Virus record (IMG/VR): IMGVR_UViG_3300035109_000020
Coordinates: 1 to 47,363 of that record
Length of the DNA: 47,363 bases
Strand: one strand, 5' to 3'
Source: a virus
Lineage: Duplodnaviria; Caudoviricetes
Both the position numbers and the translations under genes were made by a program. Under the pieces are notes generated by a model. The model was not told the origin of the DNA and made no database searches. It was given only the letters and a program-made list of their open reading frames with translations. Numbering within the stretch: the stretch's first letter is position 1; the number at the start of each line of letters is the position of its first letter. Positions 26,820 to 43,570 of the stretch are shown in pieces.

Positions 26820-26962
26820 CAGCTCAACTGCAAAAAAAGTTTTTAGACTTTCAGCGGCCAAAAATCTGCGCGTGCCGGTGCGTCCGATTTCGGGAGGGGC
26901 GCGCCAGGGGGAATTTAACCCCCCTTGGTGTGTGCCGCCGCACATTGTGCGCTATCACACAG
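26820..26962. other. Probable cos packaging region
   Basis: Intergenic gap between HNH and terS with GGGGGG/CCCCC runs and an A/T tract; HNH + P27 TerS + HK97 portal implies cos packaging (inference). Confidence 0.5.
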
Positions 26963-27286: not shown

Positions 27287-27303
27287 TGCGTAAAGCTTCG
27301 CAC

Positions 27304-27996
27304 TTACGCTCGCTTTCGCGGGCGTTGCTTGACGTCGCGCTCGATCGGTGGCCGGCGGCCATGCTCCACAAGCTCGACGTGACCGACCGGGAAGATGACA
27401 GGCGTCGGTCTGCCGAAGATGGTCAATTCAGCGCAGACGACGCCACGAGAGTCAACCCGGATAGTCTCTCCCTCGAAACCGGCGAAGGGCCCATGCAGCG
27501 CCCGCACCTTGTCGCCGACAGCGAAAACAATCGCAACTTCAAGGGGCTTATGCGTCAACTGCCGATAGTGTTCGATCAGCGCGTCCGGCATGGTCGCCGG
27601 ATCGTCCGACCCCGCAAAGCACAGCCATGAATGCACGCCGGGCTGCTCTTTCACCGCCGAGCGGACCGAATCGCTCATCGCGACGCGAATGAACAGATAG
27701 CGCCCAAACACTGGCGCAAAGACCTTGATCCGCTCTCCCGTCGCAGTCGGCTTGCCACGCCATCTCCGCATCGTCCGCACAACGACGGTCGGCCGCCAGA
27801 CCTCGAATCCAAGCGCTGCCAAGCGCCCGTAAACTTCCTTGTCCTTGCCATCGTAACATTCGACAACATGCCAGCATGGCGCGCTCGTCATCGCCGCCCG
27901 ACGCTTCGCAACCAGCGCCGCAAGGTCATCCTGTTCCGCATCCATTCGCTCACGCCCCATCTCGAAACTGCCAAACTCACGGAACGCACGCTTCAA
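27304..27996 (-). CDS. NusG/RfaH-like transcription antiterminator (probable late activator)
   Basis: WHVV...PVFGRYLF NGN domain; VGDKVRALHGPFAGFEG KOW; IFGRPT; start uncertain. Confidence 0.88.
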   Translation of the reverse strand: MKRAFREFGSFEMGRERMDAEQDDLAALVAKRRAAMTSAPCWHVVECYDGKDKEVYGRLAALGFEVWRPTVVVRTMRRWRGKPTATGERIKVFAPVFGRYLFIRVAMSDSVRSAVKEQPGVHSWLCFAGSDDPATMPDALIEHYRQLTHKPLEVAIVFAVGDKVRALHGPFAGFEGETIRVDSRGVVCAELTIFGRPTPVIFPVGHVELVEHGRRPPIERDVKQRPRKRA

Positions 27997-29021
27997 GCCG
28001 CGCCTTGCGCCGGCCCGTCGCGCGCGCCTTCAGCGGCCTCTCGCCGAGGCGGCCATTCCGTCGGCCGCATGCATGCCATTCCGTAGGCCTTCGACGGGAT
28101 GAACTTCAGCCGTGGCGCGCCGTAGACCGCGGTTTCGTATTGGGCCCATGCCGCCGCTTGTGGCGATCCTTGGCGGACCATGAAAGGCTGCCCGGCCAGA
28201 GACGCCGCGCTTTCGACGCTGCGCGCCTTTGCCGCCAGCCACCCCTCGCCCTTGAGCCATTTCACCGCATGCGCAATGCCGTGGTTGCGCGCGGTCGTCT
28301 TGCGCTCCCGACAGCCCGCGATGTAGCCGGGCGCTGCGTCGATGGCGGCGCCCTGCTCGACGACGGAGAGCCGCAGGAACACGCCGCGCGCTTCAGCGAC
28401 GAGCTCCGTCACGTCCCATGGCCAGAGCTTACGGAACGCCTCCCAACGCTCGAGGCGAGCCTCATCGTCATCGGAGAGCTTGCGCGCAGCGCTTCCCCCT
28501 CCCTCCCCCCGCTGGGGGGTAGGGGGGTAGGTTCCTTGATGGTTATTTGATGGTTCTATGCCGCACAGTTGCGGCATGGTTTCGTTTCCCCTGCGGCATG
28601 GCTCCGTTTCCCCTGCGGCTTGGTCCAACCCGCAGCCTGCGGGTTGGACCGTCTCGCTTTCCGCGTCTTCCGCAAGCCCATCCTGCGCGCCGTCGCGCGC
28701 CGTCGCCGGCGACCAGCCATGCGCGATCGCGTGGGCCTTCGCGCGTTCATCGACAAGTAAAACATAGTAATTCGTGAGCCGCCGCCCATCATTATTCTTG
28801 CGCTTTACGACGTAAAGCAGGCCGAGCTCGACCAGGTCGCGCACGCGCCGCTGAATCGTGTCTTCCGACAGATTGGTGACGGCGGCGAGATAGGCGTGCG
28901 AGGGGTAGCAGGTCTGCGCTTCATCGGCGAATTGCGCCATGGCCAGCAGCACATGCCGCGCGCCTGCCGAGACGTTCGGATCGCGGATCGCGCAAGCCCA
29001 GTTGAGCGCCGCGAAGCTCAT
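27993..29021 (-). CDS. Replication initiator with N-terminal winged HTH
   Basis: VLLAMAQFAD...CYPS...LA....LS..TI.R....L..LGL; internal iterons. Confidence 0.82.
   Translation of the reverse strand: MSFAALNWACAIRDPNVSAGARHVLLAMAQFADEAQTCYPSHAYLAAVTNLSEDTIQRRVRDLVELGLLYVVKRKNNDGRRLTNYYVLLVDERAKAHAIAHGWSPATARDGAQDGLAEDAESETVQPAGCGLDQAAGETEPCRRGNETMPQLCGIEPSNNHQGTYPPTPQRGEGGGSAARKLSDDDEARLERWEAFRKLWPWDVTELVAEARGVFLRLSVVEQGAAIDAAPGYIAGCRERKTTARNHGIAHAVKWLKGEGWLAAKARSVESAASLAGQPFMVRQGSPQAAAWAQYETAVYGAPRLKFIPSKAYGMACMRPTEWPPRREAAEGARDGPAQGAA
28531..28650. repeat. Putative replication origin: iterons and inverted repeats inside the initiator gene
   Basis: 22-bp tandem units TGCGGCATGG(TTT/CTC)CGTTTCCCC at 28570 and 28592, partial at 28614; 14-bp inverted repeat 28622-28650; adjacent AT-richer tract. 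Confidence 0.7.
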
Positions 29022-29371
29022 GCGCCACCCGCATCGATGAGCTCCAGGCGGAAGCCGATGCCGTGCTCGTTCGTGATCCTGAAGCCGAGAGCAGGGCCTG
29101 ACATGCGCAAAGTCGCGATCATTTTCCCGACGCTCCCACGCGCGTCATCCGGGCCGCCGTTCGGGTCGTCATGAAACAACGCATCGACGATCTCCGCATG
29201 GCTCACGCCCCGCCCATAGTTCGCGGCGAGTAGAACGAGCAATCTTCGTTCACCACTGGATAGCCTGGCGCGACACCGCCTCCGATGAACCCAAGGTGAG
29301 GCGGTATGGATATGCAAATCGTCATCCGCGCTCACAGCCTTCGGGCCGAACTTGTGCAGCATCACGCGCAT
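29018..29371 (-). CDS. OmpR-type winged-helix DNA-binding protein
   Basis: LSSGERRLL.LL...VSHAEIVDALF...LR....ITNEHGIGFRL. Confidence 0.75.
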   Translation of the reverse strand: MRVMLHKFGPKAVSADDDLHIHTASPWVHRRRCRARLSSGERRLLVLLAANYGRGVSHAEIVDALFHDDPNGGPDDARGSVGKMIATLRMSGPALGFRITNEHGIGFRLELIDAGGA

Positions 29372-29685
29372 CAGGCCGCCTCCCGCCGCCAGTCGGCTTC
29401 TTTTTTGGCCAGACGCGCCCGCGCGCGGCATTCATCGGCCTGCGCCTCGCGGCCGAGCGCCGCCGCGCCGCGCGCGGCCGCCTCGAACAGGCACACGCGG
29501 CTGCGCCACCCAAGGCAGGACATGACATCCGAGGAGTCGAAGCCGCGCCACAGCGCGTCGGCGATCACCTCGTCGCGCAATCGCGCGAGGAGCGGCGGAT
29601 TGGTCCGCTTGCCCGCGAGCCACACGGGATCGATGCGCTCGCGCAGCGCGGTATCTTCGACGATGCGGAAAAAGCCTTCGATCAT
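29371..29685 (-). CDS. Hypothetical (DnaA C-terminal-like HTH) protein
   Basis: Coupled ORF; ARLR...GFDSSDV...LG pattern loosely like DnaA domain IV. Confidence 0.45.
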   Translation of the reverse strand: MIEGFFRIVEDTALRERIDPVWLAGKRTNPPLLARLRDEVIADALWRGFDSSDVMSCLGWRSRVCLFEAAARGAAALGREAQADECRARARLAKKEADWRREAA

Positions 29686-30122
29686 GCGTCGCCAACCCCG
29701 CGCAGCCAGCCTTCGAATTCGGCGTCGAGCCGACGCCACAGCGCCGCCGCGCCAGAGTCCTTGTCGAATTCGGCGCGGCTTTCGACGCCACAGACGCGCC
29801 GAACGGCGGCGGCCGCCGCGTCGGCGTCGCCGGCGGTCATGAACTTCTGGAAACGTGCATCGGCGCAACGCAGCGCCGATTGCTGGGCAAGCGGCAGATC
29901 AGCGAAACGGGCTTTTTCGCTCGCGCCGCGCGCCATCTTGCGCAACGGCGCCGCATTATCTCGCACCCATGCGAGCGTGCGCGCCGCCGCATCGAGCGCG
30001 CTGGCATGCGCCGGCAGGACGCTTTCGCCGCGATAACCCGCGCCGGCATGCGCGATTTGCGCGGCGAGAGAGACGGCGGCGATCTGAGCGTCGATGAGGA
30101 TCTTAGGCGCGCCGGCTTTCAT
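29682..30122 (-). CDS. Hypothetical protein
   Basis: ATGA-coupled at both ends; VRRVCGVESRAEFD. Confidence 0.6.
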   Translation of the reverse strand: MKAGAPKILIDAQIAAVSLAAQIAHAGAGYRGESVLPAHASALDAAARTLAWVRDNAAPLRKMARGASEKARFADLPLAQQSALRCADARFQKFMTAGDADAAAAAVRRVCGVESRAEFDKDSGAAALWRRLDAEFEGWLRGVGDA

Positions 30123-31927
30123 TCGCGCATCCCCCTCAACATGGAGAGAATCTCCGCCTTATGCCGCTCCGCTGCTGCGCTCGCCTCGCGCGCAGCTTCT
30201 TCCGTTTCACCCTCTTCGTTCATGAGCCCCAGGAACTGCCGCTCCTTCACGCTCAATATTTCCATCATTCCAGGATCGGTGCCGAGCTCGGTCGTAAGAT
30301 AATAAACCAGCACGCCGTTCTTCTGACCCATCCGATGGGCGCGGTCTTCGGCTTGCGCATGGACCGCCGGCGACCAGTCGAGCTCGGCGAATACGACGAC
30401 GCGCGCGCGCGATTGCAAGCCGTCGATGCCGGTCGCAGCGCGCAGCGCGATCAGGCACAAATTCGAGTCGCCGCGCATGAACGCATTTCGCGCCGTGTCT
30501 TTCTGCGCCGGCGACTCGCGACCGGTGATCGACACAGGGTTGAAATCGTCAAGCGCTTCGAGAATGGCGTCATGCACGTCATGATGGTGCGCAAAGACAA
30601 GCGTCGGCTGTTCGGCTTCCATCAGCCCACGCACAAAAGCGACAACGCCAGGCGCTTTCGATATGCCCGTCGCCTTCCGCGCTTTCGCAATCGCCTCGGC
30701 TTCCTTCATGCCCTTGGCGAAAGGATCATTTTGCATATCCGCATCGCGCGCGAGCTCTGCCGCTTCCTGAATCAACTCGGCGAAAAGCTTGTTGTCTGCG
30801 TCGATCGGCTCGATGACGCGCTGCTTTTCCGGCAGCTCGGACAAGACCTCATCTTTCCGCCGCCGAAGCATCAGCCCAATTTCAGTGAGATAAGCGCCGA
30901 GCGCTTCCGGGCTCTTGACCAGCGACGGGTCATGTTCGCTGCACCATGTCTCCTGAAATGAAACCTTTGTTCCGAGACAGCCGCGATTGAGCGCGTTCAG
31001 GACATTGTAGATTTCGCCGCCCTTGTTGTAGATCGGCGTTCCAGACAGACCGACGGCGCATTTTGCTGTTTTTGCGATCAGTCGGCACGATTCATATTTA
31101 CGCGTCCCTGTCGCGCGCAGCTCCTGCACTTCGTCGAAAACAACCGCCTTCACGCCGCGCGCAAGCAGTAGATTCACCCAGGCGTGGACGACAAGATAAT
31201 GCACGATATAGACGTCGGCTTCCGGCGTATCGTCCTGCGCCTTCGCCCCACGCAAGACCGTCCAGCGAAGATTTTCGCTCGAGGCCAGCAACCCGCCGCG
31301 CGCCGGCTCGCATTTCAGAAATTCGCCAATCTTCCCAGCCCAGTGCGACTGCACATGCGACTGGCAGACGATGACGACAGGCCATTTGTCGAGCGTGTCG
31401 AGATAGGCGAAGGCCTGGACGGTCTTGCCAAGTCCCATATCGTCCGCGAGCACCGCGCGACTTCCCGCCAGCAGAAACCGCACACCCTCCTGCTGAAAAG
31501 TCCTCAACACGCCCTTGAAGCGCCCGCCGCCCTGCGCGGCTTGGCCTTCCGGCCGGCTGCGAATGAACCAGGCCTTCAGCACATCCGCATATTGCTCTTC
31601 CCAGATCTCGCGCGCGCTTTTATCGATCGCGATCGGAAACCGCTGCATCACCATCAGTAGGTCTTCAAACATCGACGGCATGGCAGGCCACGAGATTTCA
31701 TCACGCCGCGCCGAGGCGCGCGCGCCGGCGAAAAGCTTTTCGGCCATCAGAACGACGGCGATCGAACCCTTGAGCCGCCAGCGCGGCGGAATCTCTTCGC
31801 TTTCGCCCGGCCTCTCGGGCTCCCAGCTCAACCGCGCCGCCCCGTTCTCCACCGGGTCGGCCCGACACAGATGAAGCGGAATATCGCTCGCCGCCGGGGG
31901 CTGATTTACGACCAACGGAAAATTCAT
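30119..31927 (-). CDS. SNF2-family helicase/ATPase
   Basis: LADDMGLGKT, FDEVQ, LSGTP, RRRKDEVL.ELP, QAEDRAHRMGQ. Confidence 0.93.
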   Translation of the reverse strand: MNFPLVVNQPPAASDIPLHLCRADPVENGAARLSWEPERPGESEEIPPRWRLKGSIAVVLMAEKLFAGARASARRDEISWPAMPSMFEDLLMVMQRFPIAIDKSAREIWEEQYADVLKAWFIRSRPEGQAAQGGGRFKGVLRTFQQEGVRFLLAGSRAVLADDMGLGKTVQAFAYLDTLDKWPVVIVCQSHVQSHWAGKIGEFLKCEPARGGLLASSENLRWTVLRGAKAQDDTPEADVYIVHYLVVHAWVNLLLARGVKAVVFDEVQELRATGTRKYESCRLIAKTAKCAVGLSGTPIYNKGGEIYNVLNALNRGCLGTKVSFQETWCSEHDPSLVKSPEALGAYLTEIGLMLRRRKDEVLSELPEKQRVIEPIDADNKLFAELIQEAAELARDADMQNDPFAKGMKEAEAIAKARKATGISKAPGVVAFVRGLMEAEQPTLVFAHHHDVHDAILEALDDFNPVSITGRESPAQKDTARNAFMRGDSNLCLIALRAATGIDGLQSRARVVVFAELDWSPAVHAQAEDRAHRMGQKNGVLVYYLTTELGTDPGMMEILSVKERQFLGLMNEEGETEEAAREASAAAERHKAEILSMLRGMRE

Positions 31928-31949
31928 TCTGCGCTCCGCTCTCGAGCCA

Positions 31950-32498
31950 TCATTCCACGCCCGCCAGATCGAATAGCTCGAGCGCCAGCCTCCAGAATGT
32001 CGCGCGCGCGACATCCGGCCTCACGCCGATGATATTGACGCCGAGCGGCTCGCGTACCGCCACCCACCGCATCGACGGCGGCGCCATCAGCGCGCGCGCT
32101 TCATCTATCAGGATGCGCCGATCGGCGTCGCGAACAGCCTCCGGCTCCTCGGCCGGCAGGCCGAAATGCGCGCAGACGGCGGCCATGACGCGCGTTTCGT
32201 GCACGCGATACGCCGGCAGTGACGGCTTGATCGGGCGCGGAACGTCGACGAGATAGGCCTCGGAGGCGTCATGCAACAGCGCCCATCGCGCAAGGTCACG
32301 TTGACTGCGCTCAAGGAAATATTCGCACAATACCGAACTATGCTCTGCGACGCTGTAAAAGTGGCGCGAATGGCCGCCGAACCGGCAGAGATGCGAGAGC
32401 GCATGCGCGATGTCGCGCATGCACACGTCTTCCGGGCGCGGATCGCATGGATAGAAGGCGCGGCCCGTAAAGGTCTGAATCCAGTCGCCGCGGCTCAT
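31950..32498 (-). CDS. HD-domain phosphohydrolase (YfbR-like 5'-deoxynucleotidase)
   Basis: DIAHALS..CRFGGH...YSVAEHS...LLHDASEAYL.D. Confidence 0.9.
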   Translation of the reverse strand: MSRGDWIQTFTGRAFYPCDPRPEDVCMRDIAHALSHLCRFGGHSRHFYSVAEHSSVLCEYFLERSQRDLARWALLHDASEAYLVDVPRPIKPSLPAYRVHETRVMAAVCAHFGLPAEEPEAVRDADRRILIDEARALMAPPSMRWVAVREPLGVNIIGVRPDVARATFWRLALELFDLAGVE

Positions 32499-32941
32499 TG
32501 GACCGGAACCTTCGCAAACACACCGGTCGCCGCGTCAAAACGCCATTGCTCGCTAACCCATGAAAAATATTCGATCGAATGATCTCCGGGGCCGAGATCA
32601 TCGCTGCAGTTTTCGATAAGCTCTTCAATGCTACCGCTGAGCGTATCGGTATCGCATGGCACGTAGACAGATTCAGCTCCCGCCGGCATGTCTTTGTCGA
32701 GGGCGTAGCTTTTGTCGTCCTTAATCGTCAGCACCGCGTCGCCGAAACTTTCGAGGCGCTCGAAACCATAAATTCGACCATCGAAAAGCGGATCTGGGCC
32801 CGTCTCTTTGTCGGTATAAAAATCGTCTGGCGTATCCAGATAAAACAGCTCGCCGATCTTTAGAATCCAATTATTCGGATGCTCGCGCGGCGGCGGCGTG
32901 ATTTCATCGACATAGCAAAGCGGGACAAAACCTTCACTCAT
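32495..32941 (-). CDS. Acidic hypothetical protein
   Basis: ATGA-coupled 148-aa ORF with lower GC. Confidence 0.65.
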   Translation of the reverse strand: MSEGFVPLCYVDEITPPPREHPNNWILKIGELFYLDTPDDFYTDKETGPDPLFDGRIYGFERLESFGDAVLTIKDDKSYALDKDMPAGAESVYVPCDTDTLSGSIEELIENCSDDLGPGDHSIEYFSWVSEQWRFDAATGVFAKVPVQ

Positions 32942-34032
32942 GGCTGCTCTCCTTCTTCCGCCTCATTCCCCCAAGCATCCCAGCCCGGCCGCGGCGGGCC
33001 GCGTCGGTTGAGTTCGATTTTTGGAAGATTGGGGAAATAGCTTTCGATGATTTCGGCGAAGCGCTCCGGCTTGGCGGAATGATCGGTCTTGGCGACGCAT
33101 TGCAGCGCGCGGAACTGATCGCCCATCGCCGGGCACGGGACATTCCCGCGCGTCGCGATGATCAGCTCTTCCGCATCATCGATCACCCAATAGCCATTGC
33201 CGGGGATTTCCTTTCCCCATACGAAGCGCGACTTGCCTTCGAAGCCCCATGCCTCCAGCACGCGCAGGAACGCGCCATTCGCCAGCATCGGCCCTGTCAC
33301 CCACAAAAAGAGCACGCAATCATCCGCCGCAATCGAGCCGACGTCGCGCGCGCAAATCTCTTCCAAGCTCGACGTCGGATAGTGATTATCCGCCGCGCGA
33401 TCGAGGCCCGTTTCGCGCGAGAATGTCTCGAAACGCCATTCCGGGTCCGCATAGATCACGCCGTATTTTTTGCTGGGCAGCGCGCGAATATTTTCAGCAA
33501 GCTCTTGCTCGCGCTCTTGGCGGCGTTTCTTCTTCTCCGCCTGGCGCTCGGCGCGTGAGCCGTCGAGGGCGCGCCGCGCCTCCTTCTGGCGCTCGGCGAC
33601 GCGCTCTTCGAAATCGGGCTTCGACAAGCCCGCGAGCTGCTGCCATTTCTGCGATTGCGTCTTCGTCACGCCGAGCGACTCAAGCGTGATCAAAGTCTTT
33701 TCGCGCGACTTTGATTTTCGATCGCCGCCGCGCGTCTCTCGCTCGCCATCGTCCGCCATCCGCCGCAGCAATTCCCCCGCGCGTCGCTGTGCGGCGAGCG
33801 AGACGGCGACCGCGCGATCGAGCAGTTCTGGGTTGCGCGCGCTCTTGGCGAAGAGCTCGACGGATTCTCCCTTCGCCAGCATTTCTTTCGATTCGGCGAG
33901 CGTCGCGGTCGAGAGCGCCGCGATCGCCGCGTCGTAAAAGGCGACGCCGCTCTCGGCATAGCTCTCCGACGCCGCATCCTCGGGCGGCGGCAGGGCGGCG
34001 ACGGCATGGCTGCGCCGGCGCGGCTTGCTCAC
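32938..34032 (-). CDS. MT-A70 family adenine methyltransferase
   Basis: YGVIYADPEW, HYPT, LFLWVT, WGF, HSAKP, IELN.R..RPGWDAWGNE; GTGA-coupled start. Confidence 0.85.
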   Translation of the reverse strand: MSKPRRRSHAVAALPPPEDAASESYAESGVAFYDAAIAALSTATLAESKEMLAKGESVELFAKSARNPELLDRAVAVSLAAQRRAGELLRRMADDGERETRGGDRKSKSREKTLITLESLGVTKTQSQKWQQLAGLSKPDFEERVAERQKEARRALDGSRAERQAEKKKRRQEREQELAENIRALPSKKYGVIYADPEWRFETFSRETGLDRAADNHYPTSSLEEICARDVGSIAADDCVLFLWVTGPMLANGAFLRVLEAWGFEGKSRFVWGKEIPGNGYWVIDDAEELIIATRGNVPCPAMGDQFRALQCVAKTDHSAKPERFAEIIESYFPNLPKIELNRRGPPRPGWDAWGNEAEEGEQP

Positions 34033-34331
34033 GCGGCGCGCTCCCGCTCGACGACGACGCCGCGCTTCGCGGCCGCGGCGAGATAATGATTGACCGCCGT
34101 CTGATTGATCTCCAGCGCATCCGCGCATTGCACGGATGTCAGCCCGAGCCGTCGCAGCGACACGGCCTTCGCCTGCGCGCCGGTCAATGCGTCGAATTCA
34201 TCATCGCTCAATTGCTCCGCGACGACCGTGGCGATGGTCGCGCGATCGAGCGCGCCAAGATCAATCCGGCGCAGAACGCCATCGACTGACATCACCTTGC
34301 GCGCCATGTCGCTCAATGCGGCGGCGCTCAC
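34029..34331 (-). CDS. LuxR/sigma-region-4-like HTH protein (paralogue 1)
   Basis: LTGAQ..AV.L...GL....ADAL.I....V. Confidence 0.6.
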   Translation of the reverse strand: MSAAALSDMARKVMSVDGVLRRIDLGALDRATIATVVAEQLSDDEFDALTGAQAKAVSLRRLGLTSVQCADALEINQTAVNHYLAAAAKRGVVVERERAA

Positions 34332-34915
34332 GCGGCGCGCTCCCGCTCGACGGTCACGCCCCGCTCTTTCGCTTTCGAGAGCCGAGCCCAGATCGATTGT
34401 TCGCTTGGCGCACCCAACGCAACGGCGGTCTGCAATGCCGAAAGGCCGATCCGCTTCAGCGCGACGGCTTCCGCCTGCGCCGGCGAAAGCTTCTCGAATT
34501 CGTCATCCGCCAATTGCTCGGCGACGACGCGATCGATGGCCTCGACGGTGAGCGGGCCATCCTTCGCCTGCGCGAGAATCTCGGCGAGGGTGAGTGGCGG
34601 CGCCGATTCATCCTGCGCTTCAGCCTGATCATCGAGGGCCGGCGCGGCGCTCTGGCTTGGCGGCTGCGGCTCATCGGCCGCCTGCGTCAATCCTCCTTCA
34701 ATGGATTCGGCAATCTCGGCGGCCGCGGCTTCCGCGCCGACAATTGCGGACGCGATCGCATAGGCCTCCGCCGGCCACATAAAATCGGCCGCATACTGAA
34801 TCCGCTCGATGAGCCGATCCACATCGTCGCGGCAATCGAGACGTGCGTCGACGTCGATGGTTTCGTCGCAAATGCAGACGCGCGATTTGGTTTCTTTCGC
34901 TTCGATAGTGCTCAT
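34328..34915 (-). CDS. HTH protein (paralogue 2) with acidic N-terminal region
   Basis: C-terminal ~65 aa align with the 34029-34331 product; both end in VERERAA. Confidence 0.6.
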   Translation of the reverse strand: MSTIEAKETKSRVCICDETIDVDARLDCRDDVDRLIERIQYAADFMWPAEAYAIASAIVGAEAAAAEIAESIEGGLTQAADEPQPPSQSAAPALDDQAEAQDESAPPLTLAEILAQAKDGPLTVEAIDRVVAEQLADDEFEKLSPAQAEAVALKRIGLSALQTAVALGAPSEQSIWARLSKAKERGVTVERERAA

Positions 34916-35118
34916 TGCGGTTTATGCTCCCGGCAGTAATAGACGACACGCTCCCCGCGATGCGGCAGGCCCTCGCCGAAGGGCGCGAAGCCGCCGCACA
35001 CGGCGCAGCGATGCGCGACGGGCGCGCCCCTCGGACGCTCGCTCTGGGCAGGCCCATCCGCTCGCTTGGCGTCCGGCGCGCGCGGGGCAGGGGTGTCGGA
35101 AAAGAGATCGCGTCGCAT
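34912..35118 (-). CDS. Small zinc-finger-like protein
   Basis: HRCAVCG...FG...YCREH; GAGG SD. Confidence 0.55.
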   Translation of the reverse strand: MRRDLFSDTPAPRAPDAKRADGPAQSERPRGAPVAHRCAVCGGFAPFGEGLPHRGERVVYYCREHKPQ

Positions 35119-35335
35119 GCGGGCCCTCGGTGAAACGATCCTGGCCGTGGCGTTCGTCAGCCGCCACGGCCAGGAAACTCGAACGCCACGCTCGCAACAG
35201 AACGAAACAACGCGGCGTCTGTCTTGCCGGGCGCACGCCGCAGACCCGTCCCATCGGCGCGAGACGCCGACGCAAGCTCGAAACTCATTTTCCCGCTCGC
35301 TCTGGGCGACGCCCAACCACTCACGGAAACTCCCC

Positions 35336-35366
35336 AAAAAGGGGCGGCCGTAGGAGACGGCCGCCC
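35336..35366 (-). terminator. Rho-independent terminator
   Basis: GGGCGGCCGT-CTCCT-ACGGCCGCCC-CTTTTT. Confidence 0.8.
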
Positions 35367-35400
35367 AAGTCAGGGAGGAAACGCCCAAGGAGGGCACGGA
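35336..35400 (-). ncRNA. MmgR/suhB (alpha-r8 family)-like small RNA with intrinsic terminator
   Basis: GUGCCCUCCUUGGGCG-UUUCCUCCCU-GACUU, then a 10-bp GC hairpin and CUUUUU; matches the alpha-r8 architecture and conserved decamer as recalled. Confidence 0.78.
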
Positions 35401-35465
35401 AGCGACAGCCTTGCTTCCGTCTCCGGCCGGATGTCACGCCGGCAGAAGCTCTTGTCAGACGACCG

Positions 35466-35669
35466 TCAGGCCGCCGCGAGCGCGTCTTCCGCCCACCAGC
35501 ACTCGACCTGCCGGCCGTCGCTCGCGCGGTAGCGCACGAGATAGGTATTGTTGCCGCTCGTGTATTCGGTCCGCCCGATCACGCCGCCAGATTCGTCGGA
35601 CTCGACCAATTTCACGATCTGCTTGAGCTCGAACTTGAAACCGGAAATTTTATCCATTGACGTCTCCAT
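35466..35669 (-). CDS. Small SH3-like hypothetical protein
   Basis: FKFELKQIV...G.VIGRTEY....YLVRY...DGR..E.WW.E. Confidence 0.7.
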   Translation of the reverse strand: METSMDKISGFKFELKQIVKLVESDESGGVIGRTEYTSGNNTYLVRYRASDGRQVECWWAEDALAAA

Positions 35670-35684
35670 TTGCCCGCGCGCACA

Positions 35685-35999
35685 TCACACTCTCACGCCG
35701 GACGCCCTGCGCGCGCGATCCATTCCACGCGTGAGAAAATCGAAGTCGCGAAGCAATCGCGTCATGCCGCGCGCCGCTTCGCAATGACCTTCGCGCATAA
35801 GATCGTCGCGAAAGGCCGCGAGATGCGTGCGCAGCGCCGCGGCGTCGCACGCGCTCTCGTCCGCCCGGACCGCTCGGCTTCCTCCGAACGGAACCGTTGC
35901 GAAGTCCGCCGCGTTGAAGACTCTTACGGCTTGCGTAAGAGGGGACGCGGCCGGAGTCGTCTTCCGCCGCCGGGCGTTGTCAGACTTGCGCGCGGTCAC
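35685..35999 (-). CDS. Hypothetical protein
   Basis: GTGA-coupled, with GGAGG SD. Confidence 0.55.
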   Translation of the reverse strand: MTARKSDNARRRKTTPAASPLTQAVRVFNAADFATVPFGGSRAVRADESACDAAALRTHLAAFRDDLMREGHCEAARGMTRLLRDFDFLTRGMDRARRASGVRV

Positions 36000-36397
36000 G
36001 GTCTATCCTCCTGGCCAGCCACAGCATCAGCCGCGCGAACAAATAGGCGAGCAAGGAGGCTCTGCGGGTTTGCCGCGCCGCGCTCGTCGAGGAATTCCCG
36101 GCGCTGATGCTCGCGCCATTGCTCGTAGCCGAGCACGATGGCGGCGTAGATATGGGCGTCGATCGACTTGCCCGGCCGGTAGCGCAGTTTCCAGAGTTCG
36201 CCATAGGGGACGCTCGTATGTCCGGCGATGCGCAGCATCGCATTTTCGATGTCGCCGGGCCCGCGGCTTTCCCACCGGACCATCTCCTTCACGCGCTCGC
36301 GCGCATCGTCGACGAAAATTTCGGCGTTCATCGCTTTGCCCTTTTGCAAACGCTTTTTGCACACTTGCAAAAACTCCCATGTCAGAATGCCCGGCAT
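35996..36397 (-). CDS. Putative transcription regulator (cII-like position)
   Basis: ESRGPGD.ENAM.RIA.....Y..LW.LRYR HTH-like; start uncertain. Confidence 0.55.
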   Translation of the reverse strand: MPGILTWEFLQVCKKRLQKGKAMNAEIFVDDARERVKEMVRWESRGPGDIENAMLRIAGHTSVPYGELWKLRYRPGKSIDAHIYAAIVLGYEQWREHQRREFLDERGAANPQSLLARLFVRAADAVAGQEDRP

Positions 36398-36500
36398 GGA
36401 GGAGGTTTTGCTTACTCGTTCCCAATCAACTCGCGTCGGATGCGGGCTGCCACCCGCTCTGACGCCTTACGTAAAACGCACGCGGGGGAACGCCCCCCGC

Positions 36501-36710
36501 TCAACCCCACTTCGCGGTCTCAGCGAGACGCGCGGAGAGATCCTCAAACTCGGAAATCGCCTCAGCGATGAAATCTTCTTCCGCGTCGAGCCCCGCCTCG
36601 TCGCAGAGGAAGCGCAGCGCGCCCAGATCGTGGGAAATGCGCGCGCAGAGATCGGCCGCGACGGCGCGACGGCCTTCGCCAGTCGAGACCTGTTGCGCCG
36701 CGCCATTCAT
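36501..36710 (-). CDS. Hypothetical protein (MNGAAQQV...)
   Basis: Starts at the ATGA junction of repeat copy A. Confidence 0.5.
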   Translation of the reverse strand: MNGAAQQVSTGEGRRAVAADLCARISHDLGALRFLCDEAGLDAEEDFIAEAISEFEDLSARLAETAKWG

Positions 36711-36887
36711 TTCGCGGCCTCGGGATAGTGAGGGTTGGCGCGATCGGCGGGCGGGGCAGGTCTCGCGTCCCCGGCCGCCGCAACGGCGAAGAGCGCCGCA
36801 TGTATCCTGGGCGTGCGCCGGGGCCGCGATTCGCCTGCAGCCCCGGCGCATTTCCTCGCCGACCCGATACAGCCAGTGGAGAACAGC

Positions 36888-37199
36888 ATGTCGGAAAATG
36901 AAGAATCCGCTCTCGCCGCCAATAGCGCGGAGGGACACGTTTGTCCGGTGCGCGAGATCGTCGAAGACCTGCGATCCGATGTGTCCGAACACGACCGCGA
37001 CATCGATGACGCCGTCGACCAGATCCTGGCGTTAACGGACGCAATTATCGAAATCATCCGGCAAATGGAGCCGACCGCGGCAGGAGAAGTCATTTTCCGG
37101 ATCCGCACGCTGGAGCGAGAGAGCTCTGACCCGGAACACTGGGGCTATCGCCGCCGACTGCGGGATTTATGCGACCGCGCAAATTCGCGGGACGGATAA
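36888..37199 (+). CDS. Antisense-oriented acidic hypothetical protein (cassette A)
   Basis: GGAG SD, ATG 36888, helical 103-aa product downstream of the repeat hairpin. Confidence 0.6.
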   Translation: MSENEESALAANSAEGHVCPVREIVEDLRSDVSEHDRDIDDAVDQILALTDAIIEIIRQMEPTAAGEVIFRIRTLERESSDPEHWGYRRRLRDLCDRANSRDG

Positions 37200-37575
37200 A
37201 TTTCCATCCTTCCGCTTCGAGCCAATATTGCGCGGGGCGAATTCGACAATGGCGCGATTGGCGGTTGGCGATATAAGCCGGCGCGCATTCGATGGCCTGC
37301 GCCTGCGCATCTTCTGATAGCGCCAAGAAAGTCGCGCGCGCGCGCTTGGATTCGCGCGGCGTGCATGGCCATAGGCTTTCGAACGTCGCCCAACGCGCAA
37401 GCGCCTGCGGCGCGAGCGCAGTTTCCGCCGCCTGCTTCCGGCGCGCTTCCGCGCGCCGCTCCGCCGCGCAGATCGCGCGCCAGAGACCAATCAAAAAGGA
37501 GTCTAGGATGCCCTGCATCATATGTGTCCCCGCGATGAAAGGGGTTGGCGATCGGAGGTTGCGGGCGCCATTCAT
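37090..37575 (-). CDS. Protein containing a paralogue of the initiator C-terminal domain
   Basis: RWATFESLWP...ARATFLALS...AIECAPAYI...WLEAEGW versus initiator RWEAFRKLWP...ARGVFLRLS...AIDAAPGYI...WLKGEGW. Confidence 0.65.
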   Translation of the reverse strand: MNGARNLRSPTPFIAGTHMMQGILDSFLIGLWRAICAAERRAEARRKQAAETALAPQALARWATFESLWPCTPRESKRARATFLALSEDAQAQAIECAPAYIANRQSRHCRIRPAQYWLEAEGWKFIRPANLRGRINPAVGGDSPSVPGQSSLAPACGSGK

Positions 37576-37752
37576 TCCGCCGCCTCGGGATAATGGGGGC
37601 GGGCGCGATCGGCGGGCGGGGCAGGTCTCGCGTCCCCGGCCGCCGCAACGGCGCACGCCGCTGCATGTATCTTAGGCGTGCGCCGGGGCTGCGATTCGCA
37701 AACAGCCCCGGCGCGTTTCCCCCCACGGCCTATGGAACCAAGGGAGAATTTC

Positions 37753-37983
37753 ATGCCTGCCGACGACCCAATTGCCGCCACCGAAAGCGCGATGGACGCG
37801 ATGATCGACGCCGTTTCTCTGCTTTTCGCGTTTTCTGGAGACGCTGCCGCGCGCGAGACTTTCATCGCCCTTCTCCGCGATTTCGAGCAGGTAAAAAGCT
37901 ATGACGGATGCGGCGCCACATATCTTTCAACGCTCGTCCAAATTCGGAAAAAGGTTGAAATCCTGCATCGCCACAACACTTGA
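37753..37983 (+). CDS. Antisense-oriented hypothetical protein (cassette B)
   Basis: GGGAG SD, ATG 37753, downstream of the repeat hairpin. Confidence 0.6.
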   Translation: MPADDPIAATESAMDAMIDAVSLLFAFSGDAAARETFIALLRDFEQVKSYDGCGATYLSTLVQIRKKVEILHRHNT

Positions 37984-38281
37984 GGCCGCACGATGGCGCG
38001 CGGCGCGGCTGGCCAGAAGCAGCCGCGCGTTTCGGCCCTGGTTCGCTTTCGGCAAATTTCCGAAGCATTTCCAGTCGCTGCTCTCGCGTCATGTTTTGAA
38101 GCTCTCGTGCGCCGCTCATACGGGCCCCCGCGCATCGCGTTCGAGACGCGCCCCCAGCGCGCCGCTCCGCCGCGCAGATCGCGCGCCAGAGACCAATCAA
38201 AAAGGAGTCTAGGATGCCCTGCATCATATGTGTCCCCGCGATGAAAGGGGTTGGCGATCGGAGGTTGCGGGCGCCATTCAT
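37862..38281 (-). CDS. Hypothetical protein sharing its first 42 aa with 37090-37575
   Basis: ATGA overlap with the cro stop; N-terminus lies within the exact repeat. Confidence 0.4.
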   Translation of the reverse strand: MNGARNLRSPTPFIAGTHMMQGILDSFLIGLWRAICAAERRAGGASRTRCAGARMSGARELQNMTREQRLEMLRKFAESEPGPKRAAASGQPRRAPSCGLKCCGDAGFQPFSEFGRALKDMWRRIRHSFLPARNRGEGR

Positions 38282-38607
38282 TCCGCCGCCTCGGGATAAT
38301 GGGGGTTGGCGCGATCGGCGGTCGGGGTGGGTTCTGCGTCCCCGGCCGCCGCGTTCATCTCTTGGGAGCGCGCCTCTTGGGCTGCCCGCGCGATGGACGT
38401 TTCGCAAGATCCTTCGGCGCGAAAGGAAAGGAAATCGTTTGGCATAACCTCACCCTTCGTCGCTTCAGCGATTTTTTGCATTTGTTCGAGACGCGGATGA
38501 CGCTCTCCTCCAACCCAGAATTGGACAGCCTTTTTGGTGACCCCCAGCGCCTTCGCGAAGGACGCTTGGTCGATTTCATTTTTCTCCAGGTAATCGGCAA
38601 GCTTCAT
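38278..38607 (-). CDS. cro: Cro-like HTH regulator
   Basis: MKLADYL...QASFAKALGVT..AV..W..G.RHP......I...T.GEV.PNDF; divergent from the repressor. Confidence 0.85.
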   Translation of the reverse strand: MKLADYLEKNEIDQASFAKALGVTKKAVQFWVGGERHPRLEQMQKIAEATKGEVMPNDFLSFRAEGSCETSIARAAQEARSQEMNAAAGDAEPTPTADRANPHYPEAAE

Positions 38608-38691
38608 GTCCAAGAAATGGAACAAAACGTTCCGTCCGTCAAGAACATTATGTTCGTAGAACATTTTGTTCGGATATCAGATACTTATGAA
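38608..38691. promoter_or_regulatory. OR-like switch: three GAAC-N5-GTTC operators with divergent PR/PRM-like promoters
   Basis: Palindromes at 38620-38632, 38643-38655, 38659-38671; TTGACG (-) at 38637-38642; TAGAAC-17-GATACT (+) at 38657-38685. Confidence 0.85.
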
Positions 38692-39078
38692 ATGAAAAAG
38701 CCGGTCAATAAGCCCGACGCGAAAGCAGCGGAAAGAAAGCCGAAAGCGCCGACCCCTGTTTGGGCCCAAAGGCTCGAGCTGGCGCTTCGGCAAGCTGGCT
38801 TCGTTGATCAGAAGGGGAAGATCGATAAAAAGCGAATTGGTGAACGGTATTTCGTAGGACCAAAAGCCGTTGAACATTGGCTAAATGGGGCCCGCGAACC
38901 ACGATACGCGGTTCTCGTCGACCTGCGTCGACTGACAGGGCTATCGCTGGATTGGCTTTTCGGAGCTGAAGACGCCGCCCCTTTTAATAAGGAGCCAAAA
39001 GCGCCGCTTAAATTCGGCGGCCCGCTGTGCTCCCTAACTTCTTACGAGAACGCGCCGGCATCCATCGTGGCCTCTTAA
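38692..39078 (+). CDS. cI-like XRE/HTH repressor lacking an S24 peptidase domain
   Basis: RL..AL...AVEHWLNGAREP...L...TGLSLDWLFG; divergent from cro across the operators. Confidence 0.8.
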   Translation: MKKPVNKPDAKAAERKPKAPTPVWAQRLELALRQAGFVDQKGKIDKKRIGERYFVGPKAVEHWLNGAREPRYAVLVDLRRLTGLSLDWLFGAEDAAPFNKEPKAPLKFGGPLCSLTSYENAPASIVAS

Positions 39079-39224
39079 CCCTTCCAACGCCGAAGAATGA
39101 CCGCAACGCTGGATGCGGCTTTTCCGAAAAAAACAAGGCACAACAGATCAATAACAGGACATCTGTGCGCATCTTCAATAGATCATGCACTTCGCTTGAT
39201 TTAACCGAAGCAAAGGAAGATTTT

Positions 39225-39599
39225 ATGCATACGAAGGCTATTCCGCTTTCGCTGATAGCTGCGCTCGCGGGCTGTCAATCCACAGGAGCCCCGCCCGCCC
39301 CACCGCCGCCGCCAATCGCCTGTTCGGCCGGCCCCGATTGCGAGGCCAAGTGGTCGCGCGCCGTCGCCTGGGTCACTGAGAACGCGGCCTACAAAATACA
39401 AACCCAAACCGACTATTTGATCGAGACCTATAACGCCGTGGATAGCGGCAGCACCGGCCTTATGGCGTCGGTCAACAAAGTCTCCGTCGCGCCAGGGAAA
39501 TTCGAGATTCGCGCGCATTTTGGTTGTCGAAATATGTTTGGCTGCGCTCCCCGCACCGACGAAGCACTGCAAAAGTTTGCGCGGACCGTGAACGGATAG
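39225..39599 (+). CDS. Lipoprotein in the immunity operon (superinfection-exclusion candidate)
   Basis: LAGC lipobox, Pro linker, four further Cys; follows the repressor. Confidence 0.75.
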   Translation: MHTKAIPLSLIAALAGCQSTGAPPAPPPPPIACSAGPDCEAKWSRAVAWVTENAAYKIQTQTDYLIETYNAVDSGSTGLMASVNKVSVAPGKFEIRAHFGCRNMFGCAPRTDEALQKFARTVNG

Positions 39600-39614
39600 G
39601 GAAGGACATTTCCA

Positions 39615-39818
39615 ATGAATGAACCGACATGGGCTGAAATCAAGCGCACTTGGGCGGGGCGCACCGGACTCAAAGAAATAACCTCTATGATCGAGCGCGC
39701 CGTCGCGCCGTTGCGCGCCGATATTAACCGGCTTGAACGGGAGCTCGCGCGGCTTCGATCCGCTCAATCTCAACCTCAACCGCCGCGTCCTCCTGCGTCT
39801 CCTCCCCAAACAGAGTGA
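39615..39818 (+). CDS. Small coiled-coil hypothetical protein
   Basis: AAGGA SD; 67 aa. Confidence 0.5.
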   Translation: MNEPTWAEIKRTWAGRTGLKEITSMIERAVAPLRADINRLERELARLRSAQSQPQPPRPPASPPQTE

Positions 39819-39966
39819 AGAAAGTCCGATCGAGCGACGATGGGCATCCGGCTCGGGTCGCCAGCAGTCGACGACGCCTGTAAATCCGGCGCAGCGATTC
39901 CTCGAAGATCGGCTCGGCCACCGCGGCCATCGCGGTAATAGCCGCTGTTTTAATCTTCTCGATCAT
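39724..39966 (-). CDS. Hypothetical protein convergent with the immunity operon
   Basis: Strong AGGAGG SD 5 nt before ATG. Confidence 0.45.
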   Translation of the reverse strand: MIEKIKTAAITAMAAVAEPIFEESLRRIYRRRRLLATRAGCPSSLDRTFFTLFGEETQEDAAVEVEIERIEAARAPVQAG

Positions 39967-39977
39967 TTGTTCCTCCT

Positions 39978-40008
39978 AAGCCCGGCCCCGCGCCGGGCTT
40001 TCTTTTTT
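39978..40008 (+). terminator. Rho-independent terminator of the immunity operon
   Basis: AAGCCCGGC-CCCGC-GCCGGGCTT-TCTTTTTT. Confidence 0.85.
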
Positions 40009-40033
40009 GGCACAGCCTTAAGCATCCTGACTA

Positions 40034-40075
40034 GAACAAAACGTTCTTGACGCACAGAACAAATTGTTCTTCAAT
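40034..40075 (+). promoter_or_regulatory. OL-like operators flanking a PL-like -35
   Basis: GAAC-AAAAC-GTTC 40034-40046, TTGACG 40047-40052, GAAC-AAATT-GTTC 40057-40069; -10 weak. Confidence 0.82.
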
Positions 40076-40109
40076 CCGCTCCGTCACCGCTTCGATGGAG
40101 TATTCCAAA

Positions 40110-40559
40110 ATGGCGCTTTCAAAGTTCCATTCCGCTCTTCGCCAGAGAACCAGCGCCCCCTTAAAGCCTTCGGCTGCCGTTGTCGGCGACGATGCGACCG
40201 CATCGGACATGGCCGAAGCCCTGCGCGCCTTTCCCGATCTCATGATTTTCGCGCAGCTCGACGCTGCAAGCGTCGCGCGACGGCTTCTTTTTGCCGCCGG
40301 CTTCGATGAGGACGACATTGACCGCCTTTGGCGCGCGGCGCTGGAAGCCGAACTTGCGTGCCGTCTCGCCGAGACAGCTTTGACCTCCCTCACTCCTGTC
40401 CATCATTCCGAGGCCCTCGACGACGACGCGCTGATCTCGCGCATGGCGCAGGCGCTGCGGCCCTTCCGCAATATCGACATCGACGGCTTTGCGCGCCTCG
40501 CGCTTCTGCGCTCGGGCTTCGACCGCCCGGCGACCGATCGGCACTGGCGCGCCGCATAG
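40110..40559 (+). CDS. First early gene; hypothetical protein with internal duplication
   Basis: GGAG SD; MAEALR.F...GFD...DRLWRAA repeated as MAQALR.F...GFD...DRHWRAA. Confidence 0.65.
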   Translation: MALSKFHSALRQRTSAPLKPSAAVVGDDATASDMAEALRAFPDLMIFAQLDAASVARRLLFAAGFDEDDIDRLWRAALEAELACRLAETALTSLTPVHHSEALDDDALISRMAQALRPFRNIDIDGFARLALLRSGFDRPATDRHWRAA

Positions 40560-40711
40560 TCCGCCGAACTTGCCCACCGTCGCGCCTTCCCCTTCAAGAA
40601 GTTGGGCGCCGCCGAAGCCAATCGAGCAAAAATTCGAGCGACGATGGACGACCTGACGGCGAAGACAAACCTTGCCGAACGGTTGAGCCCCGCCCAGAGC
40701 GAGATGGGTCA

Positions 40712-40831
40712 ATGACCGAGCATCTCGCCACGCTCATCGCCAGCCACGTCTTCGCCTTCGTCCTCGGCCTCGCCATTGGATTTGATATTGCGGGCCGTCT
40801 CGCCGCCCGCCGCGAAAGAGACGAGAAATGA
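40712..40831 (+). CDS. Small single-TM protein
   Basis: MTEHLATLIASHVFAFVLGLAIG; stop coupled to the next start. Confidence 0.5.
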   Translation: MTEHLATLIASHVFAFVLGLAIGFDIAGRLAARRERDEK

Positions 40832-41115
40832 CCGCGCGCCTTCTTCCGCCCTTTGCGCCTGGATCGGTCGCGCCGACCGCCGAAGCGGCCGCGGAACTGA
40901 TCGTCACGCTCGCGAACGGCTTCGGCCCCAATGTCGGCGCCATCCTCATCCTCGCGACGCCGGAGCCAGATGGCGACGGCTTCGACGTGAAATTCGCCAC
41001 CGCGCATCTCTGCCCTCATAAGATCATCGACATTCTCGACGACATCGCCGATCGGCTGGCCCAGGAGGCGGGCGGCGTCATCAGCGGCGACGCGCCGGCG
41101 GGGCGCGCGCAATGA
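40828..41115 (+). CDS. Hypothetical protein
   Basis: ATGA-coupled. Confidence 0.6.
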   Translation: MTARLLPPFAPGSVAPTAEAAAELIVTLANGFGPNVGAILILATPEPDGDGFDVKFATAHLCPHKIIDILDDIADRLAQEAGGVISGDAPAGRAQ

Positions 41116-41393
41116 GCGTCGCGAACGACAACGCCGTCTCGCCCACGCCCTCGCGGCGCGATCAGGCCGTCGCCGCGCTTGGGCTGCATGAATTGCTCGG
41201 CGACGCGATCGAGGCGTTTTTTCTCGCGCTCGCGGCCCATGATCTCGCGACGGCGCGAGACGCCTTCGCCGCTTTCATCGACTTCGACCCGCCGTCCGAG
41301 ACGCCGCGCGCGGCGCTGCAATGGCGCGCGCGCCAAATCCGCACGCTCGCCGAAAAGCTCGCCCTCGCCGAATGCGCGCCCAAGAGGATTTGA
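41112..41393 (+). CDS. Hypothetical protein
   Basis: ATGA-coupled. Confidence 0.6.
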   Translation: MSVANDNAVSPTPSRRDQAVAALGLHELLGDAIEAFFLALAAHDLATARDAFAAFIDFDPPSETPRAALQWRARQIRTLAEKLALAECAPKRI

Positions 41394-41408
41394 GAGGAGA
41401 ATGATTTG

Positions 41409-41537
41409 ATGCCGGATATTCGCGAGAAAACCCGGGAGGAGCGCACGAAAGCGCGCATCGCGGCGCTTATCGTCGCGGAGCTTGAGCGGCTTGAGCGCCT
41501 GAAGGCCCAAGACAACTCCAGCGAACGAGACGCCTGA
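41409..41537 (+). CDS. Small hypothetical protein (MPDIREKTREE...)
   Basis: GAGGAG SD; 42 aa; TGATG overlap with the ParB-like gene. Confidence 0.5.
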   Translation: MPDIREKTREERTKARIAALIVAELERLERLKAQDNSSERDA

Positions 41538-43570
41538 TGACCACGCTATCTCTTTCCAAAATCACCCGCATCTCGCCGCTCAATCCCAATCAGGACATGG
41601 TGAGCGACGTCTCGTCGCTCGCCGCGACCATCCGCGCGATCGGCATGCAATATCCGCTGACCGTGCGCGAGCGCCCCGACGCGGCGGGAGAATACGAGGT
41701 GCTCGACGGCGGCCGCCGCTGGCGGGCGCTTCGGCTGCTTTGCTTGGGCCTCTCCGGTCATGCTGACGAGAAGTATCCCGCCGTCGAGATTTTCGACGGC
41801 TCCGAGGCCGAGGCGCTGCAACTCGCTCTTACGCTTTCCGTAACGCCTCACACCAAGCATCCCGTCGACGAATTCGAGCGCTTCTCGCAGCTCGTCGAGC
41901 AGCACGGCAAGACCGTCGCGGACATCGCCAGAGACTTCGGCGAGACCGAGCGCCATGTCCGCCAGCGCCTGGCGCTCGGGGCGCTCTCGCCGCGCGTGCG
42001 CGAGCTGTGGCGCAAGGGCGAGATCACGCGCGAGTCGGCCGAGGCCTATACGATCGCGCCGCTCGCCGCGCAGGAGGCCTTGCTCGACGATTGGGCGAAG
42101 CGCGGGTCAGGAAGCCTCAATCACCCCACCACCATCCGCGCCGCGCTGCGCGGCGATACGATGGTCGCGAGCGATCCTGTCGCGAAGTTCCTCTGCGCCG
42201 ATCCGGGGCGGCTCGAGGTCTATCGCGGAGCAGGCGGCCGCCTGATGGAGGATTTGTTCTCGGAGCAGCCAGGCCTGCAAGACCCCTCGATCGCCCGGCG
42301 CATCGCCATGGACTTCCTGCGCGCCGAGGCCCTGCGGTTCGCCGAGGCGGAAGGCTGGGGCCATGCCTTCGCGGGAGAGGACGAGGGCGGTTTCGATCAA
42401 TTCTTCCTGTCGGACGAGGAGGAGGGTCGCCTCGACGAGATCGCGCGCGAGCTCGCCGGCGAATGCACGAAGGCCAAGCGCAAAAAACTCACGGCCGAGC
42501 GCGAGGCCATCCTGTCGACCGTCGACGATCGCGCAGACTATGGCGTGCGCGCCGACCTCGACTGCGGAGGCGAGATTTATCTCACACGCGGCGTCGCGCT
42601 CCCCGACGAAGCCGCACAATCCGCGAGCGGTCGGGCTAGCCCGGAGCGAGCGGACAACCAGCCGGCCGCCGCAGCGCCAGACGCGGCGGCCGGCGAGAGC
42701 GGGGAAGAGACCACGTCGAGCGGTTGCGCTGGCGCAGAGCGAGACGAAAAAACCCCGCTCAGCGAACCGGGCAAACAGCTTCGCGCCGTCATCGACGCCG
42801 GCGCGACGGACGCGCTGCGCGACGCCGTGTGCGGACGGCCCGACATCGCTTTGATGCTCGCAGTGGCGGCGCTCGGCTGCCAATATGGCGTCGTCGGGCT
42901 CGGCCTGCGGCCCGTGCAGTCGCGCTATCCCGAAGACAATGACCTCCTGAAGCGCATCCGGCCGCTCGCCTTCCAAGGCGCCCTCGCCGCATGCGCCGAG
43001 GCCTCGACCTGCGATCTCACCGTCGCCTTCGCGCGGATCACGGCCGCCGCGATCGAGACGCAGGGCTTAGGCTTTGACGCGATCGGCGTCCTGTTCCGCG
43101 CCGTCGCCGCGCGCGGCGGCGACGTCGCCGGCGCGCTCGAGCGCAACATCGATCGCCGCGGCTATTTCGAGGCCGCCGAAAAGGAGCGCACGGCGCGCAT
43201 CGTCGGCGCGCTGATCGGCCCGGCCGAGGCGGCGCGCGTGAAGGGCTGGAAAAAGGACAAGCTCGCCCAGCACGCCGCGACGCTCTCGAAAGAGCAGGGC
43301 CATCTCCCGCCGCCCTTCAGCGATTGGTCGGACTTTCCCGCGCGTCCCGGCGCGCTCGACGAGGCGATCTACTCCGAGCGCCAGGAGCCGCTCGCCGAGG
43401 CCATGCGCGACGCGATCGAGAAAGACGAGGCGTCGAGCGGTTGCGCTGGCGCAGAGCGAGACGCGAACAAGTCGAGCGGTCAGGGGGGCAAGAGCAAGGG
43501 CAAAAAGCGCGGCCCGCGCAAGACGCCGATCGAGAGGGCGATTGAGAACACGGAAGGAGCGCCGGCGTGA
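41537..43570 (+). CDS. ParB/Spo0J N-terminal domain protein
   Basis: LAATI...G...PLTVR...YEVLDGGRRWRAL; HPVDEF; HTH IARDFG....VRQRL.L. Confidence 0.88.
   Translation: MTTLSLSKITRISPLNPNQDMVSDVSSLAATIRAIGMQYPLTVRERPDAAGEYEVLDGGRRWRALRLLCLGLSGHADEKYPAVEIFDGSEAEALQLALTLSVTPHTKHPVDEFERFSQLVEQHGKTVADIARDFGETERHVRQRLALGALSPRVRELWRKGEITRESAEAYTIAPLAAQEALLDDWAKRGSGSLNHPTTIRAALRGDTMVASDPVAKFLCADPGRLEVYRGAGGRLMEDLFSEQPGLQDPSIARRIAMDFLRAEALRFAEAEGWGHAFAGEDEGGFDQFFLSDEEEGRLDEIARELAGECTKAKRKKLTAEREAILSTVDDRADYGVRADLDCGGEIYLTRGVALPDEAAQSASGRASPERADNQPAAAAPDAAAGESGEETTSSGCAGAERDEKTPLSEPGKQLRAVIDAGATDALRDAVCGRPDIALMLAVAALGCQYGVVGLGLRPVQSRYPEDNDLLKRIRPLAFQGALAACAEASTCDLTVAFARITAAAIETQGLGFDAIGVLFRAVAARGGDVAGALERNIDRRGYFEAAEKERTARIVGALIGPAEAARVKGWKKDKLAQHAATLSKEQGHLPPPFSDWSDFPARPGALDEAIYSERQEPLAEAMRDAIEKDEASSGCAGAERDANKSSGQGGKSKGKKRGPRKTPIERAIENTEGAPA

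Follow-up and report, generated by a model that had tools for sequence, protein, structure and literature searches.

The alpha-r8 small RNAs, for which Lagares 2016 is reportedly the family-defining paper, include MmgR of Sinorhizobium meliloti, SisA-D of Caulobacter and SuhB of Sphingopyxis granuli. The family definition includes a single-stranded decamer behind a weak hairpin (PMC12559287, available text), and members repress mRNAs through this seed (PMC12559287; SuhB preprint 10.64898/2025.12.09.693200). SisA represses a broad regulon in Caulobacter and is sponged by CrfA (PMC12559287), and Sphingopyxis SuhB represses phbB and TonB-dependent receptor reporters (preprint 10.64898/2025.12.09.693200, available text). 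For MmgR no direct target is known according to the available text of PMC7143759 and PMC12559287, which leaves the direct phasin repression assumed in the initial annotation without backing, though SuhB does repress the phbB reporter. The suhB RNA has been described as present in multiple copies and as a likely antisense RNA (PMC1273637); phages are unmentioned in the available text of that paper and of PMC3346310, and none of the terms looked for was found in PMC3927594.

StxS of the Shiga-toxin lambdoid phages offers a model of how such a phage RNA may work, since an early-terminated transcript there gives rise to an Hfq sRNA with effects on host genes (PMC7547250, available text). PreS of lambda, which lies among early genes, and VpdS of VP882 are Hfq-dependent sRNAs of temperate phages as well; both are phage-specific sequences with shown targets and not alpha-r8 members (PMC12197685). 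Phage sRNAs described to date are phage-specific sequences from enteric bacteria, vibrios and pseudomonads, and the words alphaproteobacteria, Rhizobium and Caulobacter do not occur as whole words in the available text of that review. One supplementary row of PMC10690425 lists RF00519 among Rfam structures from DNA viruses, with suhB unnamed in the available text, so the occurrence of this model in viral DNA is already on record, without discussion. No paper was found that discusses alpha-r8 in phages or its positions there; Lagares 2016 and preprint supplements may bear on this.

The window analysed here is a whole viral record (G000) of 47,363 nt, linear and estimated to be 82% complete. Its gene content is that of a lambda-like, HK97-type temperate phage, in agreement with the placement of the RNA in a phage. 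The genes recognised among 61 ORFs scanned encode cro-like and cI-like proteins, an MT-A70 methylase, an SNF2 helicase, a replication initiator, a NusG-like antiterminator, HNH, terminase, portal, capsid, tail, endolysin and ParB-like proteins, and an excisionase. No integrase was recognised among these 61 ORFs of the linear, incomplete record, and neither PHROGs nor Pfam gave a match for the leftmost three ORFs tested (301-2986). Among 120 capsid relatives listed, the best one with a name comes from Methylocystis sp. MJC1 (80%) and the next from Bradyrhizobium (70%); the one match to Methylocystis points to a Methylocystis-type methane-eating bacterium as the likely host. Methylocystis stores PHB. 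The SNF2 helicase has no match in GTDB genomes, and a single terminase match there, of 29 residues, was judged spurious.

The sole Rfam match across the 47,363 bases is to suhB (RF00519, E 1.5e-8). It spans model positions 1-77 of 77 and scores above the gathering cut-off of 41 bits (Table 1), so that the alpha-r8 identity, for which a covariance model had been named as the check, holds up. On sequence evidence the element is a true family member: beyond the score, the decamer, which reads TTTCCTCCCT on the minus strand, lies behind the weak hairpin and is predicted to be single-stranded (unpaired probability 0.91 in the terminated RNA), and a predicted Rho-independent terminator follows. The gene for N-formylglutamate amidohydrolase (FGase) has no tblastn match in the 47,363-nt record, and in the absence of an adjacent FGase the element is regarded as a member of the family and not as an orthologue of MmgR. 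An identical copy is held by a second viral contig.

Every part named in the initial annotation was found on the minus strand: upstream stem, hairpin, decamer, GACTT linker (35371-35367), terminator hairpin and U-tract. The hairpin, given as GUGCCC-UCCUU-GGGCGU, is predicted with only four base pairs (GCCC/GGGC), since its outer GU pairs compete with the upstream stem. The U-tract amounts to just five U, the terminator stem (35366-35342) being followed by C-TTTTT to 35336. The upstream stem is present, with its 8-bp arms ACGGAAGC (35420-35413) and GCTTCCGT (35403-35396), but taken alone it lacks significance (-11.7 kcal/mol, z -1.4). For the 67-nt core the folding z is -4.34, and none of 200 shuffles matched it. 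The 5' stem is a candidate for the 5' end of a predicted RNA of ~85 nt, and of 25 phage copies folded, most have a 5' stem ahead of them, with unrelated sequence.

The phage copy is like the host members in its weak hairpin, exact decamer, GACUU, terminator and variable 5' stem. It differs from them in having neither an FGase neighbour nor the host-type promoter CTTG-N-CATATT found at host loci, and in lying in a repressor-controlled operon. A 161-codon ORF spanning the element (35397-34912) is not taken for a gene: a codon-usage gene caller passed over it, and its 3' part is accounted for by a start at 35118 that has a ribosome-binding site.

Table 1. Features of the alpha-r8 element and of the early region around it (positions in the 47,363-nt window).
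Feature	Position	Strand	Evidence
suhB/MmgR (alpha-r8) Rfam match	35328..35402	-	54.4 bits, full model
5' stem, 8 bp with 9-nt loop, abutting the core	35396..35420	-	predicted fold
Weak family hairpin GCCC-UCCUU-GGGC	35383..35395	-	sequence, Rfam match, fold
Anti-Shine-Dalgarno seed decamer UUUCCUCCCU	35372..35381	-	sequence
Intrinsic terminator, 10-bp stem, 5 U	35336..35366	-	terminator scans, predicted
GGGGAG directly behind the U-tract	35330..35335	-	predicted back-pairing with seed; possible ribosome-binding site
Weak promoter-like candidate CTGACA-17 nt-GACATC	35430..35458	-	by eye; 5/6 match to TTGACA
Upstream 63-aa gene	35466..35657	-	phrog_8618 E 7e-22, phrog_1935
cro-like gene, first of the RNA-holding operon	38278..38664	-	phrog_35 E 2e-7, Pfam HTH_3
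Three operator-like palindromes GAAC-N5-GTTC over the rightward early promoter (TTGACG, minus strand)	38620..38671	.	motif search
cI-like repressor gene, divergent from cro-like gene	38677..39078	+	phrog_2328 E 1e-7, phrog_4
Two more operator-like palindromes over the other early promoter	40034..40069	.	motif search

The RNA lies ~3.2 kb downstream of cro and in the same direction, which fits its initial assignment to the early operon. The five GAAC-N5-GTTC palindromes together cover both early promoters. The stop of the 63-aa gene is 70 nt ahead of the RNA's hairpin. The terminator of the RNA tops a list of 23 sites in a scan of 26000-42000, a count not itself significant since the shuffled region gives 18 sites on average, and under stricter criteria no further minus-strand terminator was found between cro and the RNA. 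The RNA's terminator is the first strong one predicted downstream of the cro-side promoter, and the additional role of early terminator proposed for it agrees with these predictions. Behind the terminator, GGGGAG could serve as ribosome-binding site for a 55-codon ORF (35324-35157).

The nearest relatives found do not share this placement. The sole relative of the upstream 63-aa gene (in L121, 68%) sits elsewhere and without alpha-r8, and none of nine other loci with relatives of a 133-aa early gene has an alpha-r8 within ~4 kb. Synteny with five prophages, which have an upstream gene of equal length and spacing, was rejected since the proteins are unrelated (24-30%).

Two repeated features were seen in the early region. 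The 12-mer GCCCAGAGCGAG occurs exactly at 35307-35296(-), 35049-35038(-) and 40692-40703(+), and with one mismatch at 42639, 42732 and 43449(+), in every case on the sense strand of one of the two early operons. These six occurrences compare with 0.86 expected for a motif chosen after being seen, and it was not found in the loci of other phages; it could be an antitermination or protein-binding site. The early operon also has duplicated blocks between 36700 and 38352 (196 nt at 96% and 191 nt at 83% identity), which yield three ORFs with related C-terminal ends.

The element is not the singular capture that the initial annotation supposed. A search with the 24-nt core listed 119 viral loci (113 distinct) from 43 of 64 parts scanned, and ~180 IMG/VR stretches are estimated to hold this core. 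For 80 loci with flanks, genes were called with a simple codon-usage caller and clustered, and 73 upstream genes and 77 representatives were compared with PHROGs. FGase is a neighbour at none of the 80, on which ground contamination by host flanks was rejected. The upstream gene is co-oriented with the RNA in 67 of 78 loci. By our own classification, 33 of the 80 copies belong to late leaders, upstream of HNH or terminase and in most cases following a NusG-like gene, and 24 of the 73 upstream genes match the NusG-like phrog_6386. The early-operon copies number 11 of 80: a twin of this phage (L061), eight with an identified repressor and two assigned by orientation only. The remaining copies are found at the ends of late operons, next to capsid genes or close to integrases; a few in this last group may be host copies. 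Further position classes, just before or behind capsid genes, were noted in L008, L019, L034, L028, L010 and L049.

The core also matches four records of cultured phages. Two of them, the Bradyrhizobium phages L132 (OP596613.1) and L133 (OP596612.1), have an unannotated alpha-r8 ahead of HNH/terminase, which is the late-leader arrangement. Another unannotated copy lies between the lysis genes and the integrase of L134 (OM681334.1), deposited as a Microcystis phage, and hints at an alphaproteobacterial true host. Plasmids also carry alpha-r8 copies (54 records); in the Methylocystis parvus plasmid pMpar-2 (L271, ~3001) one lies behind a truncated haemoglobin gene. Alphaproteobacterial phages make a recurrent and apparently undescribed use of alpha-r8, of which this element is one case.

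The 33 late-leader copies sit at the position equivalent to that of StxS. The copy in this phage is on the early side and, unlike StxS, does not fall in the stretch that separates the late genes from the late antiterminator gene; its NusG-like gene (27945-27304) lies 18 nt away from HNH, and 7.4 kb away from the RNA. StxS also differs in its unrelated sequence, its late promoter and its production in lysogeny, and it does not copy an entire sRNA family of the host.

Late-class loci (e.g. L001, L009, L015, L132, L133) have a U-tract hairpin and then a TAGGGT-like word ahead of the RNA, an arrangement found in 26 of 33 late copies vs 0 of 10 early ones. The word is not at the place of the -10 box of host copies. 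L063, L050 and L113 have it again, there behind the terminator of alpha-r8, and it may be a signal for the phage NusG paralogue. Separately, GCGTAAGTGCGAAGC lies directly 3' of the NusG-like gene both in this phage (~27303-27289, minus strand) and in L363 (~692-706), whose NusG-like proteins share 64% identity, and is possibly a loading site for the antiterminator.

Conservation of the seed was assessed by a seed-free search, with the hairpin fixed and the decamer free, which yielded 119 loci, 110 of them distinct, in the 33 of 64 parts covered. This set overlaps that of the core search and is blind to copies that lost hairpin and seed together. The decamer is exact in 83 of the 110 and has one change in 10 (seven of them at the last base), two in two, three in one and four in one, while the remaining 13 have six to nine changes and look like chance matches. 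Among the 97 family-like copies, then, the seed is exact in 83 and has at most two changes in 95. The flanking stems vary freely in sequence between phage copies, and since the seed is kept while the stems diverge, more is conserved than a terminator needs.

The best reading of the locus, to which we give a probability of about one half, is an Hfq sRNA made from a terminated early transcript and boosting the host alpha-r8 regulon. Once the repressor is lifted, a cro-side transcript would arise from the operator-covered promoter and would stop in part at the moderately strong, 5-U terminator. A 3' fragment of ~60-85 nt with seed and U-tail would outlast processing behind the 5' stem and act as an Hfq-bound sRNA, adding seed dosage to the host alpha-r8. 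UUUCCUCCCU would then pair with Shine-Dalgarno regions of host uptake, catabolism and storage mRNAs, with PHB genes as one possible part, and the cell would be held in a feast-like state through lytic growth. As the phage seed equals the host seed, the targets should overlap the host's alpha-r8 regulon, and any benefit would have to come from dose or timing. Counted in favour are the five operator-like palindromes together with co-orientation with cro, and the StxS precedent of a terminated lambdoid transcript giving an Hfq sRNA; counted against are the weak promoter-like site, which could free the RNA from repressor control, and the lack of this placement in the near relatives. The interpretation first given to the element is partly supported: release of an sRNA from a 3' UTR and Hfq binding are plausible, and an effect of the phage copy on PHB is possible.

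The alternative that survives best, though it is unlikely, is that the element works in cis, as a captured terminator whose seed acts on its own transcript, for example by pairing with GGGGAG so as to control the gene that follows or to build a stem for processing. On read-through, the predicted unpaired probability of the seed in this phage drops from 0.91 to 0.39. With a tract counted where its duplex reaches -8 kcal/mol or better, a threshold set after seeing the data, back-pairing tracts are present in 6 of 11 early copies (this phage included), 0 of 31 late copies and 5 of 34 others (L054 and L055 skipped; L061 and duplicates dropped). With relatives collapsed, the enrichment is 4/9 early vs 5/65 for the rest (Fisher p 0.010, at this post hoc threshold); no such tract was found behind 44 other terminators. 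Selection for the tract gave 15 viral loci, 13 of them of the early-operon type, in ~7 lineages. Nine of the 13 tract loci bearing GGAG are without a start codon at ribosome-binding distance.

Against a role in cis, mean read-through accessibility differs little between the classes (0.54, 0.61, 0.68), and most phage copies are without the tract and keep the seed all the same. A metagenome search for the tract gave 90 loci (74 distinct), and FGase is 30 of the 51 downstream genes tested, which shows that ordinary host copies carry the tract too. Host copies with the tract have a similar predicted accessibility (0.40 vs 0.43) and a longer linker (11 vs 6 nt). A phage-specific switch that hides the seed was downgraded on account of these host copies, and the back-pairing tract, itself a prediction, is kept as a lead only.

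The weak promoter-like site, set against the sRNA from a terminated early transcript, is what a second and less probable alternative builds on: a stand-alone sRNA gene expressed in the lysogen that alters host physiology, e.g. with fewer outer-membrane receptors, rather than the lytic cycle. CTGACA-17-GACATC would start the RNA near 35422, at the base of the 5' stem; clear TTGAC promoters are seen by eye at several non-early phage copies, and the SuhB repression of a TonB-dependent receptor reporter is in line with an effect on receptors. However, the -10 match is poor, the promoter scan did not list the site, and a 5/6 TTGACA match within 90 nt occurs in only one of 12 other early copies.

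It is improbable that the RNA targets phage mRNAs, whether to time the late genes or to sway the choice between lysis and lysogeny, or that it titrates a host sponge like CrfA, for which the CrfA sponging of the seed in Caulobacter is a parallel. The best phage pairing site is the start region of a tail-region gene at 15945 (-23.0 kcal/mol). This energy is reached by 0.2% of random 38-mers, and over 54 starts it is not significant (P ~0.10), so the silencing of phage mRNAs that had been suggested finds no significant target. The cI start pairs poorly (-7.3), and a complement of the decamer with at most one mismatch occurs nowhere in the phage record except on the opposite strand of the gene itself. 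A neutral relic of recent host capture, useful only as a terminator, would suit the patchiness of alpha-r8 among relatives and the mobility of its copies, on plasmids too, and is very hard to credit given an exact seed in 83 of 97 copies despite diverging stems and the non-random positions and orientation.

Beyond this locus, a tentative and rather doubtful generalization is that alphaproteobacterial temperate phages have repeatedly installed the host master sRNA alpha-r8 as a terminator at switch points: after cro, after the NusG-like late activator and at the end of late operons. The lysis-lysogeny circuit would then dose a mimic of the host carbon-status signal, and in the early class the tract would hide the seed on read-through and make the RNA a termination-gated sRNA. 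Whereas described phage sRNAs are phage-specific sequences, many phages carry this host regulator in full, its seed unaltered, at terminators under regulation. As cultured Bradyrhizobium phages hold copies, the question is testable now. If the RNA is expressed, phages would retune the feast-famine and storage regulon of their hosts by RNA mimicry, in symbionts and probably in methanotrophs.
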